A stretch of 55,278 bases of DNA from a virus (IMGVR_UViG_3300033562_000464:1-55278); one strand, 5' to 3'; numbered from the stretch's first letter, positions 4,351 to 51,779 are shown. Notes: generated by a model from the sequence alone, not told the origin. Made by a program: numbers and translations.

Positions 4351-4911
4351 TTAAGCAGGCACCGATGTCACATAATCAATAAGTTTCACAGGCTTGCCAG
4401 ATTTTGTGTTTTCTCTTGCTTTAATTTCGAACTCTGGCGCAAAAAAGTCTTTTTTAAATGCCAACTTTGGAGCCTTGCCTGTGCATTTTGTGAGGGTAAT
4501 TTTGATGTAACCAATAATGTCGTCGCCTTCATAATTTGCTACATAAATCTCAGCTTGAAATAATTTCATTGTTGCACCATCTTCAAGTTTTGGGCTATCG
4601 TAACCAACAATATCCTCACCAGTTTTTCTAATAGTACCGCCTTCAATTAACGAAGCCACATTAATATCAAATGTGTTATCCTTTAATTTAAGGTTATATC
4701 CATAAAGAAGGTCTGGTGTGCTTGCAATAGCAAGTATCTTTTCATTGGTTCTTAAAACTTTTTCATCGCCCTCACTAATTACTGGTTCAAGTTCGGCTTC
4801 TTCCGCAGTTGTAACGTTGCAGATAATTGGTGTGCCAACTTTTACAAGCCCCGTTGCTGGGTCAAGTTCGCTAAGTACCACTTTTTTAATACCGTATAAA
4901 ATATCAGACAT
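4351..4911 (-). CDS. Major tail tube protein
   Basis: 186 aa beta-rich protein in the canonical slot before the chaperone and TMP. Confidence 0.8.
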   Translation of the reverse strand: MSDILYGIKKVVLSELDPATGLVKVGTPIICNVTTAEEAELEPVISEGDEKVLRTNEKILAIASTPDLLYGYNLKLKDNTFDINVASLIEGGTIRKTGEDIVGYDSPKLEDGATMKLFQAEIYVANYEGDDIIGYIKITLTKCTGKAPKLAFKKDFFAPEFEIKARENTKSGKPVKLIDYVTSVPA

Positions 4912-4928
4912 TTATATATCCTCCTTAA

Positions 4929-5264
4929 TTAAATTGTTTTAGGTATCCTGAAATCTTCCGACCTCATTATGGCTTTTTTAGGTTCATCTATAAAATCGGA
5001 TGTTCTGTTGTTTGTTGCTTCTATGCCTATGCTAACAAGGGCATTTCTAACACTATTTAGCTTGTCGTCAATTAATGAAACGCTTGTCTTTGGTACATAT
5101 ACCATAACTTCAAAGTATTGCCAACCAGCAAGGGAATTGCCCCCTGTATTTTGGTTCTTGTACTTAATAACCGCATACGGTTTTTTGCATTCCCCATCAT
5201 GTTGTCCAACCCAATACGCTGGGCAAATGGCACTTACTGTATTGTAAATAGTAGTTCTTGTCAT
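4929..5264 (-). CDS. Tail terminator protein
   Basis: 111 aa with PYAVI and EVMVYVP-type motifs, upstream of the tail tube gene. Confidence 0.65.
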   Translation of the reverse strand: MTRTTIYNTVSAICPAYWVGQHDGECKKPYAVIKYKNQNTGGNSLAGWQYFEVMVYVPKTSVSLIDDKLNSVRNALVSIGIEATNNRTSDFIDEPKKAIMRSEDFRIPKTI

Positions 5265-6008: not shown

Positions 6009-6271
6009 TATGCATCCGCCCTTTTCATCGTGCCTGTGGCATTTGCACGAAACATTCGTGCTCTCCTCAGCCAATATTTTTCATTGCTTGTTGTATTAAT
6101 CGGTCCCAATTTAACACTATCATCTTGCGCCTTTATCATACATCCTTCATAGCTTGCTTTTTTAACGGTTTCAAATTGGTCTAGTAACGCTTGGCAAGCA
6201 TCTTCAGTGAAATATGGAAATTGTTCTTCCTGCATGTTAAACCTTAAAATCTCTAAATCTGACATAGCCAT
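6008..6271 (-). CDS. Head-tail connector/adaptor
   Basis: 87 aa with PYFTED and SVKLGPI motifs, downstream of the capsid gene. Confidence 0.65.
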   Translation of the reverse strand: MAMSDLEILRFNMQEEQFPYFTEDACQALLDQFETVKKASYEGCMIKAQDDSVKLGPINTTSNEKYWLRRARMFRANATGTMKRADA

Positions 6272-6281
6272 TTTTCATCAC

Positions 6282-6506
6282 CTACCACTTCGCTTCACCA
6301 AGTTGTGCAACCTCAAATTCTTTAGCTTCACTAAATGTAACTTCAACTGTTTCATTAGCGTTAACCAACACACCGCCAAGGTTAACATTTCGGTTAAATT
6401 TGAACTCAACCGTTTCAATAATTTCGCCTTCGCCTTCTAAGTTTTCTTCACCTTCATTTAAACCATCTAATTCGGTGTCAACTAAATCTTCTTTTAGTTT
6501 TTTCAA
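6282..6506 (-). CDS. Small acidic hypothetical protein after the capsid gene
   Basis: ORF with AGGAGG RBS and TTG start. Confidence 0.6.
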   Translation of the reverse strand: MKKLKEDLVDTELDGLNEGEENLEGEGEIIETVEFKFNRNVNLGGVLVNANETVEVTFSEAKEFEVAQLGEAKW

Positions 6507-6588
6507 AATATTATCCTCCTTTAAATATAATTCAAGGGGTAGAGCATACGCCCAGCCCCTTGGTTAATTATCAATATTTTGGTAAATC

Positions 6589-7644
6589 CTAGCTGTGTAC
6601 AGTTGCAATAAAGCAATTGTCAATGTTTTCGAAACTTGGTAGGAAAATTCCACTTACAATCGTAAACACGTTTACTGGGTGCACTTCTTTCGAAGTTGTT
6701 ACAGCAACGCCTGTATTAACAATTTGAACTTGTGCTTCGCTACCAGCTAATAAATCACTTTCTTCTGGGGTTGTACCATAGTAAGTATTTCCCAATGTGC
6801 CAGATGGTATTAAAGTAAATACATCATCTGGGAAGTAATTAACCGCTGTACCCGAACCATTGTCGAACTTTTTGTTATACACCGCAACGGTTAACCCGAG
6901 CTTAGTTGTAACATATTGTTTCACCATTGCTTCGGTAACGATGCTCATTGTTGCAACAACGCCAGTAGTAAGGAACATGTCCTTTTTGATGCTTTCGTTT
7001 TGTGCTAAATAATTAAATGTCTTTCTTGTACATACCGCTCTTGTAGGTCTTGAACCCGTATTAGCTTCTACCAAATCCATCCATCTTTCAATGTCTTGAA
7101 CTGGCTTGCTATTAACAAAATCCGACCATTTTGCGGTTGTTAACAATGTTTCTTTGTGAGCCGCATTAAACTTATAATCATAAGTATAAGGTACACGGTT
7201 CGCACTAATGTCAATTGCACCGCCTGAAAGTAATTGCATACGCATTCTTTCCGCTTGTACTCTTGCACCTTCAACCAATTTACTAACATCATCATAAATG
7301 TTGTTAATCAATGGCATAATGAAATTCGTATTTGAAGCACCAATAAATTTGTTAAGTTCTTGTCGATCTTTTTCACCAATACGCATTGCTTCTCTGAAAA
7401 ATGGCATTTCAGTTTCAACTGAGTTAATACCAATTCTTTCTCTTAACGTTGCTTTCGCATCAAATGCACTTGGCTTCAATGCTACTGGTAAACCGTTTGA
7501 ACCTTTAATCCATTTTAAGTCAAGCCCCATTTGTTTCTTTGCTGGAAATAACCCCTCGCCCAAATATGGGATAGCGTTTTCTGGCTTGTTTGTAACATAT
7601 GAAGCAATTTCCTTGGCATTTACATAATCAAAAATTGTAGGCAT
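6589..7644 (-). CDS. Major capsid protein (phage capsid E family)
   Basis: 351 aa. YLGEGLFPAKK, ERMRMQLL, LGNTYYGTTPEE and LPSFE motifs. Confidence 0.92.
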   Translation of the reverse strand: MPTIFDYVNAKEIASYVTNKPENAIPYLGEGLFPAKKQMGLDLKWIKGSNGLPVALKPSAFDAKATLRERIGINSVETEMPFFREAMRIGEKDRQELNKFIGASNTNFIMPLINNIYDDVSKLVEGARVQAERMRMQLLSGGAIDISANRVPYTYDYKFNAAHKETLLTTAKWSDFVNSKPVQDIERWMDLVEANTGSRPTRAVCTRKTFNYLAQNESIKKDMFLTTGVVATMSIVTEAMVKQYVTTKLGLTVAVYNKKFDNGSGTAVNYFPDDVFTLIPSGTLGNTYYGTTPEESDLLAGSEAQVQIVNTGVAVTTSKEVHPVNVFTIVSGIFLPSFENIDNCFIATVHS

Positions 7645-33170: not shown

Positions 33171-33953
33171 TCACCATTTACCGCACTCGGTTTTATAATT
33201 ACAATAAGTGCAATCCTTCTTGTTATCACTTTTTGGTGGTATGCCCCCACCATTAACATATGAATTGCATGTTTCAATCTTATTAACTACGAGGTCCTCT
33301 TTCATTTGTTCGGTAATATCAAATTGAAAAACTTTCAAATCGCATATATCCCGATTTTCATAAAGGAAGATAATACTATTAATGTTTAAACAGGTTGAGT
33401 ATGCTGCTACTTGCACCTTGTGGTCTTCAAATGGTTGAACTTGCCCTTGCCATTTGTAAAAACTTTCTGTCTTAATTTCAATGATATAATACTTTCCTCG
33501 GTATTTAACAATACCATCACACATAAAGCTCATGTTTAGTATATCATTGTAACATTTTGTTTCCATGCCATTCACAGAAACAACCGTTGTCCCAGAAGGT
33601 TTTCTTCTTCTTAGATACTCTTTTACACTAATCCATTCACAATCAAAACCATGTTTTTTCATTTTTGATATTGCATATTGGAGCTGCTCATGCCTTGAAG
33701 AACCGCTTGATGTTATACCAATATTAGTATATGACCTAGTTGTATCATCAGATTTAGCCCCCGTAACTTGAAAATACATATTACGCATACAACCCCCCAA
33801 TGAAGAGGGTTTGTATGTTTTGGATGCTTCACGACGTTCGTCATCGTTTTCAATTGTTTTGCATAATTCCATTAAAAACATGTCATGAGGTGGTTTGTTA
33901 TTGGTAACATTTTTGACCAACTTTGCGAGGTTTGCCAGATTACTCTTCGCCAT
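33171..33953 (-). CDS. Cas4-like PD-(D/E)xK exonuclease
   Basis: PSSLGGC, CDGI...IEIKT, QVAAY, C-terminal CTYCNYKTEC. Start reassigned to MAKSNL. Confidence 0.85.
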   Translation of the reverse strand: MAKSNLANLAKLVKNVTNNKPPHDMFLMELCKTIENDDERREASKTYKPSSLGGCMRNMYFQVTGAKSDDTTRSYTNIGITSSGSSRHEQLQYAISKMKKHGFDCEWISVKEYLRRRKPSGTTVVSVNGMETKCYNDILNMSFMCDGIVKYRGKYYIIEIKTESFYKWQGQVQPFEDHKVQVAAYSTCLNINSIIFLYENRDICDLKVFQFDITEQMKEDLVVNKIETCNSYVNGGGIPPKSDNKKDCTYCNYKTECGKW

Positions 33954-35046
33954 CAACTTCACCGCCTTCGGTTTCGGTTGTTTGTTCCTCGGCTTCTTCG
34001 TCTTCACGCATTCTGCAAAGTATTTGATTAACTTCGCCATCAACAAGTTTAATTGCAATATCATTTCCATAATGTAATTCAAAACTATCGGATTGTATTG
34101 CTGATATTTGGTCTTGCAACAAAACGATATTCAATTGGCATTGAAAATCCGTAAAATTTTCACTTTCTAAATATGGGGTTAATTCGGCACCACCATCATT
34201 TAAGTCACTAAATAGTAGACCATCTTTTGTAAAATACAATTGTATACCGTTTTTGTCATATGGGCTAACAAATAATCCCAATCTATCCAAAATACTAGCA
34301 ATTGCTGGCTTTGATATTTTACATTTACTTGGGTATTCAAATTCAAGGATGTGGGACAAATCTGGGTAATCTGTCAACCCCTCAAGCTCCGCCCCAAATA
34401 TTACAAGGTTGTCGGTTGTAAATAATAATTTTCCGTCATTGTGTTGCACTTTAATATCTTCGCTTGTTACACTGTTCATCAACACCGCTAGTTCTTGGGT
34501 TAACAACACGGGCTCATCAAATAGTTTAACATTGTTCATGCACATCTTAACCCCATCCGTTGTTGTAGCCATATCCCCAACATAATAACCCGTAAGGCAA
34601 GGCATAGACATGTCAGTTGCAAGTGATGCTTTATTAATAGCGAAAACACTTTTTAACACCTTTGATTTAATAACAACTTCTGGGGTTTTTGTGCTAAATG
34701 TAAATGTTGGGAACTTTTCGTTCAATAAAGGTATTTTATAATTCCCGTTCCCTTTTACCACAACAACATCGTCACCCTTTTCAAACTTAACAATTCCCGA
34801 TGTTGTTTTGCTTAATAACTTAATAAATTGGTCTGCTGGTACAACCATTTCTCCCGATTTACCAACCACATTATTTTCAATTGATGTAATGTAGTTATTT
34901 ATGTCTGTTGCGGTAATTCTTAAAGATTTTTTGTCGAGCTTGATGTGTATAAAGCTTGTAATTGGTAGGAGTTTGTTGTTGCCTACCCCCTTAGTGATTT
35001 TTGTTAACATTTCATTTAACTTCGATGTTTTAATTTCAAATTGCAT
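33940..35046 (-). CDS. dnaN: DNA polymerase III beta sliding clamp
   Basis: 368 aa. LPITS..I, ITATD, FP, P.LTG, TTDG, YPD, ILDR landmarks. Confidence 0.85.
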   Translation of the reverse strand: MQFEIKTSKLNEMLTKITKGVGNNKLLPITSFIHIKLDKKSLRITATDINNYITSIENNVVGKSGEMVVPADQFIKLLSKTTSGIVKFEKGDDVVVVKGNGNYKIPLLNEKFPTFTFSTKTPEVVIKSKVLKSVFAINKASLATDMSMPCLTGYYVGDMATTTDGVKMCMNNVKLFDEPVLLTQELAVLMNSVTSEDIKVQHNDGKLLFTTDNLVIFGAELEGLTDYPDLSHILEFEYPSKCKISKPAIASILDRLGLFVSPYDKNGIQLYFTKDGLLFSDLNDGGAELTPYLESENFTDFQCQLNIVLLQDQISAIQSDSFELHYGNDIAIKLVDGEVNQILCRMREDEEAEEQTTETEGGEVDGEE

Positions 35047-35746
35047 TTTGATTTCCTCCGCTAAGTTTATCCATTAAGTTGTTAAATCTTTCCAACTCGT
35101 CAGGTGAATTTGGTTCATAATTAGATACTATTAATGTTAACATGCTTTTATCAACACCATTGAGCTTATTTGTGTCAACCCAACCATCAACCTCAATGTT
35201 AAAAATCTTTTGTGCTGATAAATAATCACACAATGCTATAAATACTTGGTATGGTTTTTCTGGTAACGGTAAAACAACATTACTTTTATTATTTGTGTTC
35301 CAGTTTGACATGTGGCTTTCAACACCTTGCAATATAGCCTCAACTTGTGATGGTTTTAATATATCATAAACTTCTTTGTTGCCACGTAGATGTTCTGATA
35401 ATACCAATGGATGTTCATGTACTGTGTACTTGCTACCCTTTAATCCACATTTACAACCATCATGTAACATTATTGCTGAGCGGATACAATCCTTTTGAAA
35501 ATCATTGTAATCTCCAAGCGATGTAAATCTAAATAACTCCTCAGCAATTTTTAAAGCAGTTTTGGTGTGCCTTACCAACCCGCCCTCACCCAACGATGAT
35601 ACTGGGTGATATTTCCCAGTTGTGCTTGCAGGTATTACCCAAAAATAATCGGGCAATAATTCAAGAGCCCCAATTGTAAAACTACGCACATTATCATCTT
35701 TTATTAGTGCCAACTGTTTTTCAAAAATTTCAACTTCTTTTTTCAA
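35036..35746 (-). CDS. HD-domain phosphohydrolase (YhaM-like HD)
   Basis: PAS..GKYH, GGLVRHT, LHDGCK, SHM, CDYLS. Confidence 0.85.
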   Translation of the reverse strand: MKKEVEIFEKQLALIKDDNVRSFTIGALELLPDYFWVIPASTTGKYHPVSSLGEGGLVRHTKTALKIAEELFRFTSLGDYNDFQKDCIRSAIMLHDGCKCGLKGSKYTVHEHPLVLSEHLRGNKEVYDILKPSQVEAILQGVESHMSNWNTNNKSNVVLPLPEKPYQVFIALCDYLSAQKIFNIEVDGWVDTNKLNGVDKSMLTLIVSNYEPNSPDELERFNNLMDKLSGGNQNAI

Positions 35747-35774: not shown

Positions 35775-35806
35775 TAATATATAACAAAATATTGTATATG
35801 TTAAAG
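35775..35806 (-). promoter_or_regulatory. Class II promoter
   Basis: CTTTAA-N17-TATATATTA. Confidence 0.7.
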
Positions 35807-36304
35807 CCCCATGTCCATTATTTTAAAAAGGCCCCTAACCAAATTTGAAAGAGGTGCATCATCCGACCAAGAAGTTGCTGCGTTAAGGTTTGTCATAGCA
35901 ACGAATTTAATGTCGGGGTATGCCATATTTAAACATAGTATAGTTTCACCACTCCCAGTCGGCACTGCATAAATTGGGTCGGTTAAATCCCCCAATCTTT
36001 CACGAAACGCATTACCAATATCAACCATGAGGTGAAGTGGCAAGTGCCCACTTGTTGCATCAAATTCATTTTTAAATACTTTTTTTATTTCTGATGGTGT
36101 CCACCACTTATTCGCAACAAGCACCCCACTAGGGCTGATATCTATTGTATCAACCCCTGCTTCAATTAACTTTATGCTGGCATTGCCACAACTAAAACAA
36201 ACTGCCCTTTTAATGCCTGCATTCTTCATATAACGTTTTATCACCATTGACCTTATTTCTTTGGCATCAAACCTGAGTATTAATAACCCCTTAATAGTAT
36301 TCAT
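35801..36304 (-). CDS. Minimal fold-type-II (TrpB/CysK-like) PLP-dependent enzyme
   Basis: AKEIR (candidate Schiff-base Lys), FSCGNAS, VPTGSGET glycine loop. 167 aa. Starts 1 nt after the MTase stop. Confidence 0.65.
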   Translation of the reverse strand: MNTIKGLLILRFDAKEIRSMVIKRYMKNAGIKRAVCFSCGNASIKLIEAGVDTIDISPSGVLVANKWWTPSEIKKVFKNEFDATSGHLPLHLMVDIGNAFRERLGDLTDPIYAVPTGSGETILCLNMAYPDIKFVAMTNLNAATSWSDDAPLSNLVRGLFKIMDMGL

Positions 36305-36305
36305 T

Positions 36306-37262
36306 TTAATCCTCCTCTTCAACCTTAAATATTTTTCCTATTTGTTTAATATCACCCTTAAAAAACACTAGCACATTTTGATGTATTTTAACAATTTTTC
36401 TATTGTTCATGCTATTTTGAGCTCTTATTGATGCGGTTCCAATAGTATTGAGTAAAATTATTTCATTGTAATACTTAAACCCAATCTCTTTCATTAAGGT
36501 AATATTATCGCCAACAAAGTTTCTATATTCACCAGTTTTTTTATTTCTTATTTCGCCAACCTTTACCACCAAAAATCTGTTATCACTTAATTTTTCATAG
36601 CATTGCTGAAATATGTTTTTGTATTGTGCCATAAATTCCTCATACGTACCAACCGCACTCATATCTTCTTTGCTATAAATTTCTAAGTCGTAATATGGGG
36701 GGCTTGTAAAACATAAATCAAACCCACTGTCCTTGATAATCTTACTTAGGTTATTACTATCACCACAATAATATTCAATGTCTTTAAAACGTTTTGTCTT
36801 TTCTAAGTTGAGGTCAACTTGGTCTTGCCTAAACTCTACTGCGGTATAAGGGTATCCCAAAAATCCAGCAACAACCCCTTTAGTTTGCTCGCCACCAAAT
36901 GGGTCAAGTATTCTACCCCCTTCAGGGCAAAACCACCTATAAATTATTTCCGCCAATACTGGGTCAAAGTTGCTTGTGCCCTCATTAATATTATTAAATA
37001 ATCCTTGTTTACCAGAGTTTTCACCAAAATCACCAAATAACTTTCCGTTCTTTTTCCCACCGCCAACGGTGCCAAACTCGCCATTTCTTGTTTCACTTAA
37101 ATTTCCTGTAACTTTTAGCCAACGTCTTTTTCTGTCTTGCCAGTAACCTTGCTTTGTGTCCAATACACTAAACGGGGGTACTATAAACTTGTTCAGCAAC
37201 CCGAACGTCTCTTCCTTAATTTCAAAAAGCATTCCTTGTTTAACCTTTAATTTATCTTCCAT
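36306..37262 (-). CDS. SAM-dependent DNA amino-methyltransferase-fold protein
   Basis: FDPVLAE..YRWF, ILDPFGGEQTKG (variant motif I), FTSPPY (motif IV), HQNVLVF.KG. Confidence 0.85.
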   Translation of the reverse strand: MEDKLKVKQGMLFEIKEETFGLLNKFIVPPFSVLDTKQGYWQDRKRRWLKVTGNLSETRNGEFGTVGGGKKNGKLFGDFGENSGKQGLFNNINEGTSNFDPVLAEIIYRWFCPEGGRILDPFGGEQTKGVVAGFLGYPYTAVEFRQDQVDLNLEKTKRFKDIEYYCGDSNNLSKIIKDSGFDLCFTSPPYYDLEIYSKEDMSAVGTYEEFMAQYKNIFQQCYEKLSDNRFLVVKVGEIRNKKTGEYRNFVGDNITLMKEIGFKYYNEIILLNTIGTASIRAQNSMNNRKIVKIHQNVLVFFKGDIKQIGKIFKVEEED

Positions 37263-37285
37263 GAAGACCTCCTAGTTTATTTGAG

Positions 37286-37317
37286 TGACGTATAGTTTAT
37301 TATTGCTTTTATTAAAG
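37286..37317 (-). promoter_or_regulatory. Class II promoter variant for the MTase-PLP pair
   Basis: CTTTAA-N17-TATACGTCA. Confidence 0.5.
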
Positions 37318-37322
37318 TAACA

Positions 37323-37652
37323 TCAATGATTTTTGTTCATGCCAAGAATATCACCAGTGTTTCTTCCCACCGCAACACTTCTATCATCCCACAATTCAAT
37401 CATTTTAAAATCTTTGATATTGGTTACAGGTAAAACACATCCAATATTATCAGCACACCACGCTTCTATAATTTTTATTTGTTCTGCCCCGTTGCCTACC
37501 CTTGCTGTAAATATGCGGACATCCTTACCACAATATATCCACTCCTTCACACGTTGAACCATTGGTTTTATTGGTTCACCAATATGCTCCATACCCTTCC
37601 AACCATCATAAAAAGCCAATGTCCCATCTAAATCAACACCAATCCATCCCAT
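37323..37652 (-). CDS. HAD-family phosphatase (PNKP phosphatase-like)
   Basis: VDLDGTL, IFTAR, TNIK, WDDR. Start reassigned to MGWIGV. Confidence 0.85.
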   Translation of the reverse strand: MGWIGVDLDGTLAFYDGWKGMEHIGEPIKPMVQRVKEWIYCGKDVRIFTARVGNGAEQIKIIEAWCADNIGCVLPVTNIKDFKMIELWDDRSVAVGRNTGDILGMNKNH

Positions 37653-50900: not shown

Positions 50901-51704
50901 TTATGCCACCCCCGTAAGTTGCTCTGAGCTTAGTGTTTGTATTCTTTTAGTAACATAATCGCCAACGTTTGAACCATTTATATTTAATTTAGCAAACATT
51001 GTTTCCATTGATTTTTGTAATGTTCCCCTTGAGCCAGTGTGTATATTAACTTTGTTTTCCTTTGCATAGTTTACTATTAAATGTGTAAGTATTGCCCAGT
51101 TAACAACTTTTTCTGATTCTACTGTGCCACTATGTTGTCTAAATTCTATTGTTCCGTATTTTACAAAACTTTTTATATTAAGTGTTTTGTAACGAGTGCC
51201 TATAGCATTATCCATGCTATAAACTGTTGTAGCTTCGTTTATTTCAGCAATTTCGCTTGAGCTAATTGCTCTGCAATAACCTTCGGTAGCACTTTGTCTT
51301 CTACTTTTTGGCATCATTGCATCAATAACATTTTTGTATTCATACATAAAATTGTAAAGGCTTTTAAAGTTTTCAACCGAGTAGTCATTTACATCGTGGT
51401 GTATGTGCACTCCACAAGTTTTATCAACCTTTGCACCACATTCAACAAGTGTTTCCATAACTACTTCAAGTTCATCAAGTCCAGCATCACTGTAAAGTAT
51501 TGGGCTAACAATTTCGTTCCCGTTCATAGCATCTGTTCCCGAAGTCGTAACGCTAGCGTCAGTTGTAATTTTCCAACATGTAGGCGTATTGTGGTTGTAG
51601 CCTTCCACGTTTGCAGCAACACCTTTTGCTCTTAATGCTCTTGCAACTTCTTCTTTTGTACATCCAAAAAATTCAATTTCAACGCCAATTTTTAAGTTTT
51701 TCAT
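50901..51704 (-). CDS. Putative amidoligase (COOH-NH2 ligase type 2)
   Basis: IGVEIEF, WK..TDASV, EIVSPIL, CGVHIH, RY..LN, TIEFRQH.GT. Confidence 0.88.
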   Translation of the reverse strand: MKNLKIGVEIEFFGCTKEEVARALRAKGVAANVEGYNHNTPTCWKITTDASVTTSGTDAMNGNEIVSPILYSDAGLDELEVVMETLVECGAKVDKTCGVHIHHDVNDYSVENFKSLYNFMYEYKNVIDAMMPKSRRQSATEGYCRAISSSEIAEINEATTVYSMDNAIGTRYKTLNIKSFVKYGTIEFRQHSGTVESEKVVNWAILTHLIVNYAKENKVNIHTGSRGTLQKSMETMFAKLNINGSNVGDYVTKRIQTLSSEQLTGVA

Positions 51705-51750
51705 TTTTAAAGCCCTCCGTTTTTTAAGTTTGTTTACCACCACTGAACAT

Positions 51751-51779
51751 ATTATATAATAATATAGCATGGATTGCAA
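51751..51779 (-). promoter_or_regulatory. Sigma-A early promoter, class Ib
   Basis: TTGCAA-N17-TATAAT-ATGTTCAGTGGT. Confidence 0.78.

Follow-up and report, generated by a model that had tools for sequence, protein, structure and literature searches.

Why should a phage keep a protein that resembles a pyridoxal phosphate (PLP) enzyme cut to half its size directly behind a gene for a DNA methyltransferase-like protein? The question is posed by two adjacent genes, here gene 1 and gene 2, in a virus record of 55,278 bp (IMGVR_UViG_3300033562_000464:1-55278), which was analysed at its full length, is estimated to be about 90% complete, and is hereafter called the window. A sequence-only reading had taken the two products for a protein with a methyltransferase (MTase) fold and a minimal PLP enzyme, and had proposed that they form a replisome-coupled unit placing a group larger than methyl on DNA. 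That interpretation as a whole was partly supported by the analysis presented here. Our preferred reading, which we rate somewhat short of an even chance, is that the two genes make up a single module for modifying DNA, which draws on the amino-acid arm of S-adenosylmethionine (SAM) in addition to its methyl group and transfers an aminopropyl or aminocarboxypropyl group to DNA.

The two genes travel together in an obligate manner. We collected 82 loci with gene 2 homologues, comprising 80 contigs from IMG/VR and the phages phiCTP1 and vB_CtyS-FA88 (FA88); each scan took the best 80 relatives, and viral relatives of gene 1 number more than 500. A full gene 1 homologue stands upstream on the same strand, usually overlapping gene 2, in 77 of these 82 loci; two others (L010 and L012) retain only a remnant of it, and the remaining three lie too close to a contig end. 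Dereplication at 80% identity of gene 2 left 24 viral groups, 22 of them with a full gene 1, and the recurring MTase–PLP pairs that the sequence-only reading had suggested looking for were thereby found, together with a fused form described below. The reverse scan detected gene 2 within 3 kb of 75 of the 80 best gene 1 relatives, with one locus offering no room for it and four lacking it. All ten loci from bacterial genomes (Azospirillum, Acidobacteriota, Kiritimatiellae, Syntrophomonadaceae and others) likewise carry both genes. The gene 1–gene 2 pair is a conserved module.

Gene 1 is related to DNA amino-methyltransferases in a rearranged form. Pfam N6_N4_Mtase (PF01555) matched it at 50.4 bits (cut-off 26.7), with residues 182-306 aligned to positions 2-110 of the 221-position profile, and this match spans the catalytic half only, the SAM-loop half sitting upstream; two PHROG families matched over the protein as well (phrog_12517, E 4e-99; phrog_498, E 3e-69). 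Alignment with a Thermus methylase (PDB 2zie) fell into two pieces in swapped order. Because the SAM-loop half precedes the catalytic half and the 2zie pieces are swapped, the motif order of gene 1 is X-I-IV, a departure from the beta-class order of IV, target-recognition region and I. The cofactor loop departs from the class too: gene 1 combines a catalytic loop of the (D/N/S)PP(Y/F) type with a SAM loop that differs from the canonical DPFxG(S/T)G(T/S)T, and comparison of its LDPFGGEQTKG with LDPFAGTGTT of 2zie places a Glu at the middle of the G-x-G and a Gln at its second Gly. Across 23 relatives, residues D120, P121, F122, G124, E125, K128, G129 and T186-Y191 are invariant, and the blocks PPFSVLD..W..RK..W, DPF.GE..KG and TSPPYYDLE.YS are invariant or nearly so, which makes the variant SAM motif first picked out by the sequence-only reading a hallmark of the family. 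The other motifs quoted in that reading are all present, and they too contain near-invariant residues, with the exception of QGMLF (residues 9-13), which is unconserved and lies in a region that is variable in relatives or exchanged for a ParB domain. Relatives without gene 2 mostly have [ST]CPPY[YFA] in the catalytic loop.

An N-terminal ParB_N domain was detected in at least five of ten relatives scanned (six when a sub-threshold match of 23.1 bits, cut-off 26.3, is counted), and a Pfam scan found none in the gene 1 of the window, where the linker motif PPFSVLD..W..RK..W alone remains. The top Foldseek matches of an AlphaFold model of gene 1 (pLDDT, the predicted local distance difference test, 77 overall and above 90 in the core) were Trm11, TrmN and Trm14, which are exocyclic-amine tRNA methyltransferases, followed by generic class I MTases and M.BseCI; the spermidine synthase family was absent among its Pfam, NCBIfam and PDB matches. 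Gene 1 thus belongs, broadly speaking, to the ParB-methylase family and fails two canonical beta-class features, the motif order and the G-x-G loop. ParB-methyltransferase fusions of this family occur in phages and Firmicutes, an example being Bce_0392 of Bacillus cereus, cited in PMC5512222. Gene 1 is 43% identical to one of them, gp36 of Enterococcus phage phiFL3A, and has the motif order, the PPFSVLD..W..RK..W linker and the (S/C)PPY element in common with them. It differs from the fusions in having no ParB domain, in its TSPPYY, in a Glu-x-x-Lys loop where they have GGSVRG, and in being always followed by gene 2, whereas phiFL3A, B054 and Funu2 have no such partner.

Gene 2 matched nothing in Pfam, PHROG or NCBIfam, and a comparison with Pfam PALP (PF00291) gave no match at E ≤ 0.01 or at E ≤ 10. 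It nevertheless belongs to a large family, comprising at least 424 clusters when grouped at 90% identity and at least 222 when grouped at 50%, whose members are mostly 110-220 aa long with a maximum of 263, none reaching normal PALP length; the window's own protein, as the sequence-only reading had noted, is about half the size of E. coli CysK (323 aa) and TrpB (397 aa). Structure prediction returned the fold-type-II PLP-like fold that had been anticipated. Searches with an AlphaFold model built on a 52-sequence alignment (pLDDT 96.3, predicted TM-score (pTM) 0.90) gave, among the 40 PDB matches listed by Foldseek, 39 fold-type-II PLP enzymes, among them CysK (O-acetylserine sulfhydrylase), CBS, TdcB (threonine deaminase), ThrC, serine racemase and similar proteins (E about 1e-4, probability 1.00, query TM-score (TMq) 0.47-0.61), and one SRP54 GTPase. 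The best match in BFVD was a PLP-dependent enzyme, and in the nearest viral clusters of the ESM-Atlas (186-209 aa) Pfam PALP is found in 12% and 46% of members.

Conservation of gene 2 residues, counted over 267 family members (Table 1), picks out three candidate cofactor elements. The putative Schiff-base lysine, K15 of AKEIR, stands at the N-terminus of helix 14-29 of the model, as assigned by DSSP, and R18 of the same motif is kept in 247 of 247 relatives; SCGN sits between strand 34-37 and helix 41-48; and GSGET, which overlaps the VPTGSG motif (residues 114-119), has a strand before it and a helix that starts at the loop. On the model, these elements would follow one another as they do in fold type II, where the Schiff-base lysine comes first, then the asparagine loop and then the phosphate loop, and the 26 residues from K to N compare with roughly 28 in E. 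coli TdcB, an approximate figure taken by eye. The hhalign program set the glycine loop of gene 2 on GGGGL of TdcB and on GSGTL of the longer PALP partners introduced below, at low probability in both cases. Just 48 residues follow this loop in gene 2; the corresponding loop of TdcB lies, again by eye, near residue 190 of 329. Since gene 2 fails the Pfam model and is without the C-terminal third of the fold, we keep it out of PALP membership and describe it, going by the model, as an apparent minimal derivative of the PALP fold, for which binding of PLP is plausible.

Relatives of gene 1 place other enzymes in the slot that gene 2 occupies. Two of the four loci without gene 2 (L149 and L156) have as their next gene a pyruvoyl S-adenosylmethionine decarboxylase (AdoMetDC; Pfam AdoMet_dc, E 6e-33 in L149), and a wider scan added such partners in L164 and L241/L242. 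We judged AdoMetDC identity by scores on the NCBIfam equivalog TIGR03330 (cut-off 75.65), where four distinct partners reach 124, 119, 86 and 83 bits, and by a published assay on Croceibacter phage P2559S. This phage encodes a gene 1 relative, gp66, and an overlapping AdoMetDC, gp67; in Pseudomonas phage ZRG1 an AdoMetDC follows the gene 1 relative, according to the record annotation and a two-sequence hidden Markov model. As described in PMC9992855, E. coli BL21 delta-speD regained spermidine synthesis when supplied with the P2559S homologue, which is a bona fide AdoMetDC, so that the partner in this phage makes decarboxylated SAM (dcSAM); its MTase or ParB neighbour goes unmentioned in the text of that article.

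Further partners belong to the PALP family. A PALP protein of 231-235 aa lies directly downstream of the gene 1 relative in L213, L228, L233, L236 and Microcystis phage Mae-JY30 (the L213 partner scores 41.9 bits on Pfam PALP, cut-off 35), and this partner family aligns with TdcB and TrpB, the lysine included. In mycobacteriophage Vincenzo the slot after the gene 1 relative is filled by gp2, a 289-aa homologue of 1-aminocyclopropane-1-carboxylate (ACC) deaminase and D-cysteine desulfhydrase (PDB 1j0a, E 5.5e-12). The 829-aa gp70 of Pseudanabaena phage (cyanophage) Pam4 (L265 1012-3501) goes one step further, being a ParB and MTase-like protein with a PALP domain inserted at about residues 420-600, between the SAM loop GGSVRG (motif I) and SCPPYA (motif IV). 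Another fusion is P0268, a single metagenomic sequence of 452 aa on a 3.2-kb contig, in which a domain resembling gene 2, with 43% identity across 95% of its length, is followed by a Methyltransf_11 domain at the C-terminus. In this second domain the likely motif I, read by eye as ...DTGDA..., has an acid where spermidine synthase has one, which we take as a lead only, and a BLASTP comparison of P0268 with E. coli SpeE returned nothing significant. An enzyme that would act on the alpha-amino-acid end of SAM has been repeatedly recruited to this MTase-like family, in some cases encoded by an adjacent or overlapping gene and in others built into the protein as a domain. The presence of AdoMetDC in the gene 2 slot of relatives lends indirect support to the idea that the transferred group is larger than methyl and comes from the SAM amino-acid arm.

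At the sequence level, attempts to link gene 2 with PLP enzymes mostly failed, its comparisons with PALP proteins being weak. No homology to pyruvoyl AdoMet_dc, with its ES-S processing site, was found in gene 2, and operon position is all that the two have in common. Local hhalign between gene 2 and the 231-aa PALP partner family reached 8% probability on the glycine loop alone, the global version being meaningless, and jackhmmer started from that partner family reached gene 2 in 0 of 120 cases. A PDB profile search with gene 2 gave chance-level matches only, and no alignment came from hhalign of the single sequence with E. coli CysK. When gene 1 and gene 2 were co-folded with PLP and SAM, without controls, both runs scored 0.00 with no contacts, which speaks neither for nor against binding.

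The cofactor loop of gene 1 varies with the partner. We tabulated 160 loci from two scans on one profile, many contigs occurring in both scans, and compared the column that follows F-x-G. This column is Glu in 119 loci, 118 of which have gene 2; in the remaining one (L157) 142 nt are left after gene 1, and a fragment of gene 2 was still scored there in the reverse linkage scan. It is Asp in five loci, every one with AdoMetDC, and Gly or Ser in 36, among which neither gene 2 nor AdoMetDC occurs and four have the 231-aa PALP protein. A broader rule, that an acidic loop goes with any partner, was rejected because these four non-acidic loci carry a PALP partner, and the rule was narrowed to gene 2 and AdoMetDC. 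After dereplication at 90%, 57 rows remained (28 Glu, 4 Asp, 25 Gly or Ser). In a maximum-likelihood tree of these rows, those with Asp and AdoMetDC form two separate supported groups, both nested in the clade to which the majority of Glu/gene 2 rows belong; L155, which has Gly and is partnerless, is sister to L149 and L156, which have Asp and AdoMetDC; and a three-row Glu/gene 2 group is sister to a 20-row Gly clade. From this placement, the loop acid arose more than once, each time together with gene 2 or AdoMetDC. An acid is also found in the glycine loop (IIGGGDGA) of E. coli SpeE, a spermidine synthase with an MTase fold that uses dcSAM, and this Asp presumably selects dcSAM over SAM.

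We propose the following mechanism for the module. The (S)PPY pocket of gene 1 would present an exocyclic amine of a DNA base, and its cofactor loop would have been rebuilt to carry the invariant Glu-x-x-Lys. Gene 2 would be a minimal descendant of fold-type-II PLP enzymes of the ACC-deaminase or D-cysteine-desulfhydrase type, with the lysine, the S-x-G-N loop and the glycine loop kept and the C-terminal third gone, and would act on the alpha-amino-acid end of SAM. Its most likely reaction would be decarboxylation before transfer, as a non-homologous stand-in for AdoMetDC, after which gene 1 would move a 3-aminopropyl group to DNA, with N4 of cytosine, N6 of adenine and N2 of guanine as possible targets. 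The other order is equally compatible with the data: gene 1 would transfer 3-amino-3-carboxypropyl from SAM, and gene 2 would process the adduct on DNA. In either case the modification would probably protect the phage DNA from host nucleases. To our knowledge, the sole established use of dcSAM is as an aminopropyl donor. The most economical explanation would be that the AdoMetDC-linked enzymes transfer aminopropyl to DNA and that gene 1 with its small partner performs the same or a related aminoalkyl transfer.

Extended to the entire family, the proposal becomes doubtful. Its members would then be DNA aminopropyl (or aminocarboxypropyl) transferases that place a cationic three-carbon arm on an exocyclic amine of A, C or G and rely on lineage-specific, non-homologous feeders or finishers, namely pyruvoyl AdoMetDC, full or truncated ACC-deaminase-like PLP proteins, an inserted PALP domain and the 167-aa gene 2 protein. 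No earlier fold-type-II, PLP-dependent enzyme would be known to act on SAM as the latter then does, perhaps by PLP-dependent decarboxylation of SAM.

A known parallel to the proposed module is the SpeE/SpeD system, with its MTase-fold transferase, its enzyme that removes the SAM carboxylate, its adjacent genes and the acid in the glycine loop of its transferase; gene 1 relatives pair with a true AdoMetDC. The differences are that gene 1 has no sequence homology to SpeE nor gene 2 to SpeD, that the acceptor would be a DNA base in place of putrescine, that gene 2 is PLP-like and not pyruvoyl, and that the acid of gene 1 lies one position earlier in the loop. With the ACC deaminase and D-cysteine desulfhydrase branch, gene 2 shares the overall fold and apparently the K-x-I-R, S-x-G-N and G-S-G elements, but it is half-sized, is without the C-terminal third, escapes the Pfam PALP model, and is set apart by an invariant DATSGH loop and by the Glu of its glycine loop. 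Post-replicative thymidine hypermodification in ViI- and M6-type phages also uses PLP enzymes, according to PMC8989533. The likeness is that of a phage PLP-type enzyme encoded alongside DNA-modifying genes; those pathways start from 5-hydroxymethyl-dU, whereas the partner in the window is an amino-methyltransferase-fold enzyme, and no hydroxymethylase was evident among the genes scanned. The ViI- and M6-type pathways use kinases and fold-type-I PLP enzymes. Transfer of the SAM amino-acid arm in place of methyl has precedent in Tyw2, Tsr3 and TapT, SAM-dependent 3-amino-3-carboxypropyl transferases of RNA; these differ from the pair in belonging to other folds or families, in acting on RNA and in having no PLP or decarboxylase partner.

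Several points weigh against the proposed aminopropyl-type chemistry. Many relatives of gene 1, among them those of phiFL3A, B054 and Funu2 as well as 21 of the 57 dereplicated rows, are partnerless and are followed by terminase genes, and phiFL3A gp36 is annotated as an adenine methyltransferase; with so many close relatives lacking a partner, and given that annotation, plain methylation is the default expectation for the family. The longer PALP partners go with a non-acidic GGS[AV]RG loop, so the acid does not track PLP partners generally, and the PLP partner proteins may act differently from AdoMetDC. Two loci (L010 and L012) keep an intact gene 2 after a mere 74-aa C-terminal remnant of gene 1. 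An activity assay among the AdoMetDC partners exists for P2559S only, and some phage AdoMetDC homologues are ornithine or arginine decarboxylases, as reported in PMC10407285. For gene 2, weak PALP matches were obtained in 3 of 52 relatives (best E 0.025), and global hhalign against nine E. coli PALP paralogues gave 3.9% probability, with a sensible placement of the glycine loop only. Gene 2 also has an invariant Glu inside its would-be phosphate loop and is missing the C-terminal third of the fold, and for these two reasons its binding of PLP is uncertain; in known fold-type-II enzymes the C-terminal third holds the residue that faces the pyridine nitrogen. We know of no fold-type-II decarboxylase.

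Alternatively, gene 1 could be an ordinary orphan DNA methyltransferase forming N4-methylcytosine or N6-methyladenine, with gene 2 as an accessory enzyme of SAM or S-adenosylhomocysteine metabolism, an explanation that we consider rather unlikely. Gene 2 might then clear away a product that inhibits the reaction, or it might counter restriction by consuming or converting the SAM of the host, with the phage enzyme adapted to the altered cofactor as methyl donor. Gene 1 does look like an amino-methyltransferase in every hallmark, the closest relatives of solved structure are methyltransferases, and the partnerless relatives, one of them annotated as an adenine methyltransferase, fit this explanation; an adjacent AdoMetDC or PLP enzyme would also lower SAM, as phage SAM-degrading enzymes do. 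What it leaves unexplained is why the loop acid occurs exactly where the partner is gene 2 or AdoMetDC, and why a PALP domain is inserted within the Pam4 enzyme, and it sits poorly with the one established role of dcSAM known to us, as donor of aminopropyl.

The truncated fold, the odd Glu in the glycine loop and the lack of a Pfam match would also suit a gene 2 product that has lost catalysis and PLP binding and works with gene 1 as a subunit for structure, regulation or target recognition, as would its translational coupling and constant position next to gene 1. We regard this as improbable: the near-invariant residues are exactly the lysine, S-x-G-N and G-S-G loops expected of a cofactor site, and bona fide enzymes occupy the same slot in relatives. 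That the target is not DNA, and that the pair modifies a small molecule, a protein or a base in tRNA or rRNA, is very improbable, for although the best structural matches of gene 1 are the tRNA m2G methyltransferases Trm11, TrmN and Trm14 and P0268 joins a gene-2-like domain to a small-molecule-type Methyltransf_11, at least five of the ten relatives (six with the sub-threshold match) have an N-terminal ParB DNA-binding or nuclease domain, gene 1 is homologous in sequence to DNA N4/N6 methyltransferases, and the genes are placed among phage replication or packaging genes.

The layout of the locus accords with a two-gene unit as first described, with gene 2 starting 1 nt past the stop codon of gene 1 on the same strand (Table 1); the minus strand holds all long open reading frames (ORFs) of the window. 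The junction reads GAGGAGG-ATTAA-A-ATG, the TAA of gene 1 at 36308-36306 being separated by the single base 36305 from the ATG of gene 2 at 36304, and an alternative TTG start at 36322 would give gene 2 a length of 173 aa. Because of this 1-nt gap and the GAGGAGG inside the end of gene 1, the two genes are translationally coupled.

Table 1. Features of the gene 1–gene 2 locus and its surroundings, numbered from the first letter of the window.
Feature	Position	Strand	Remarks
Gene 1	36306..37262	-	318 aa; amino-methyltransferase-fold protein; ParB-less member of ParB-MTase-like phage family; motif order X-I-IV
Variant cofactor loop (motif I), DPFGGEQTKG	36876..36905	-	gene 1 residues 120-129
Catalytic loop (motif IV), TSPPYY	36690..36707	-	gene 1 residues 186-191
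GAGGAGG ribosome-binding site for gene 2	36311..36317	-	within final codons of gene 1; direct sequence reading
Gene 2	35801..36304	-	167 aa from ATG; minimal fold-type-II PLP-like protein, unannotated family
K15 codon, candidate Schiff-base lysine	36260..36262	-	AKEIR, residues 14-18; K in 243 of 246 relatives
S38-C-G-N41, candidate asparagine loop	36182..36193	-	C39 in 241, G40 in 259 and N41 in 239 of 260 relatives
D82-A-T-S-G-H87, family-specific conserved loop	36044..36061	-	D82 in 256, T84 in 264, G86 in 267 and H87 in 248 of 267
G117-S-G-E-T121, candidate phosphate-binding glycine loop	35942..35956	-	G-S-G-E in at least 265 of 266
Promoter-like hexamer pair TTGATG-16-AATAAT	37299..37326	-	upstream of gene 1; match 9/12
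Promoter-like hexamer pair TTAACA-17-TATATT	35776..35804	-	just downstream of gene 2, upstream of HD gene; match 10/12
HD-domain protein	35036..35746	-	
dnaN	33940..35046	-	
Cas4-like ORF	33171..34082	-	listed with TTG start
Amidoligase_2 protein	50901..51779	-	292 aa

The neighbours are those named in the sequence-only reading. On the upstream side are PolA (Pfam DNA_pol_A, E 4.5e-95) and a protein of 120 aa proposed to be a haloacid dehalogenase (HAD), an assignment resting on weak PHROG matches and on a DxDGT motif visible in its sequence; downstream are the HD-domain protein (Pfam E 1.6e-5), DnaN (E 1.1e-9), a Cas4-like protein and RecU. The proposed coupling to the replisome does not carry over to the family, as polA, dnaN, cas4 and recU accompany the pair in the phiCTP1-like group only, and in several annotated relatives terminase genes adjoin the pair or its relatives. 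The class II promoters said to bracket the unit also found no support, since the region has 14 promoter-like sites against 12.9 ± 3.5 in shuffled sequence; no terminator-like site was found in the same region. We found no nucleotide-level relative of the window in the phage collection searched, and no PALP, AdoMet_dc or PP-loop homologue elsewhere in the window.

Among these neighbours, the HD-domain protein has a strong match to phrog_5889, of unknown function, and a weak NCBIfam match to the Cas10/Csm1 N-terminal region (TIGR02578, E 5.6e-4, far under the cut-off), and in other phages it is no companion of the pair. The Cas4-like ORF, from its listed start, overlaps the end of dnaN by about 140 nt and encodes 303 aa, compared with 258 aa for its homologue in phiCTP1; because of this overlap and the shorter homologue, its true start probably lies further downstream. 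About 14 kb from the pair, the window encodes a protein with matches to phrog_2443, annotated "amidoligase enzyme" (E 1e-54), and to Pfam Amidoligase_2 (E 5.5e-36). In principle, a ligase that forms amides could lengthen a DNA adduct that bears an amine; no tie between it and the pair was found.

Other loci hold additional genes beside homologues of the pair. In three lineages a PP-loop ATPase of 314-341 aa stands between the gene 1 and gene 2 homologues (L088 3866-4837, L094 1316-2260, L139 1630-2655), with weak matches to QueC, tRNA_Me_trans and ATP_bind_3 over its SGGxDS region; it may represent an optional third step that activates a carboxylate or carbonyl. In L012 the intact gene 2 homologue (160 aa) and the gene 1 remnant preceding it occupy 4355-5036, an arrangement found likewise in L010, and a canonical beta-class N6_N4 methyltransferase lies 1 kb further downstream (6032-6718). 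A second canonical N6_N4 methyltransferase also follows a partnerless ParB-MTase-like gene in Halovirus HCTV-2 (L270 3054-3695) and in L215 (4464-5111); the remaining ORFs that follow gene 1 relatives at partnerless loci are of helix-turn-helix or terminase-small-like type. Two database records of the family can be read in this light: Pam4 gp70 is annotated solely as a "pyridoxal-phosphate dependent enzyme", and the Mae-JY30 protein of L271 2744-3454, which comes after split ParB and MTase-like genes, is annotated "DNA modification methylase". The latter name looks wrong, because the protein matches the profile of the 231-aa PALP partners (E 7e-82) and not the MTase profile.

A description of an MTase–PLP or MTase–AdoMetDC pair in DNA modification was not found in CC-licensed PMC papers or in bioRxiv full text. 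As far as we know, the phage hypermodification pathways with PLP enzymes described to date all begin with 5-hydroxymethyl-pyrimidines. The chance that the chemistry of the pair is new in kind is a real one. Cultured carriers exist for each variant of the system: phiCTP1 and vB_CtyS-FA88 for gene 2, P2559S and ZRG1 for AdoMetDC, Vincenzo, Mae-JY30 and Pam4 for a longer or inserted PALP protein, and phiFL3A and B054 for the partnerless form.

Should gene 1 and its partners place an aminopropyl-type group on DNA, this would be a new class of DNA base modification and a new reaction for the DNA methyltransferase fold, and gene 2 would represent the smallest PLP-fold enzyme family yet seen. Such enzymes could serve in sequence-specific amine labelling of DNA. 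Even if the pair carries out methylation alone, gene 2 defines a large unannotated family of at least 424 clusters with an obligate methyltransferase partner. Aminopropyl transfer to DNA would, in addition, account for the phages that encode S-adenosylmethionine decarboxylase without a spermidine synthase.

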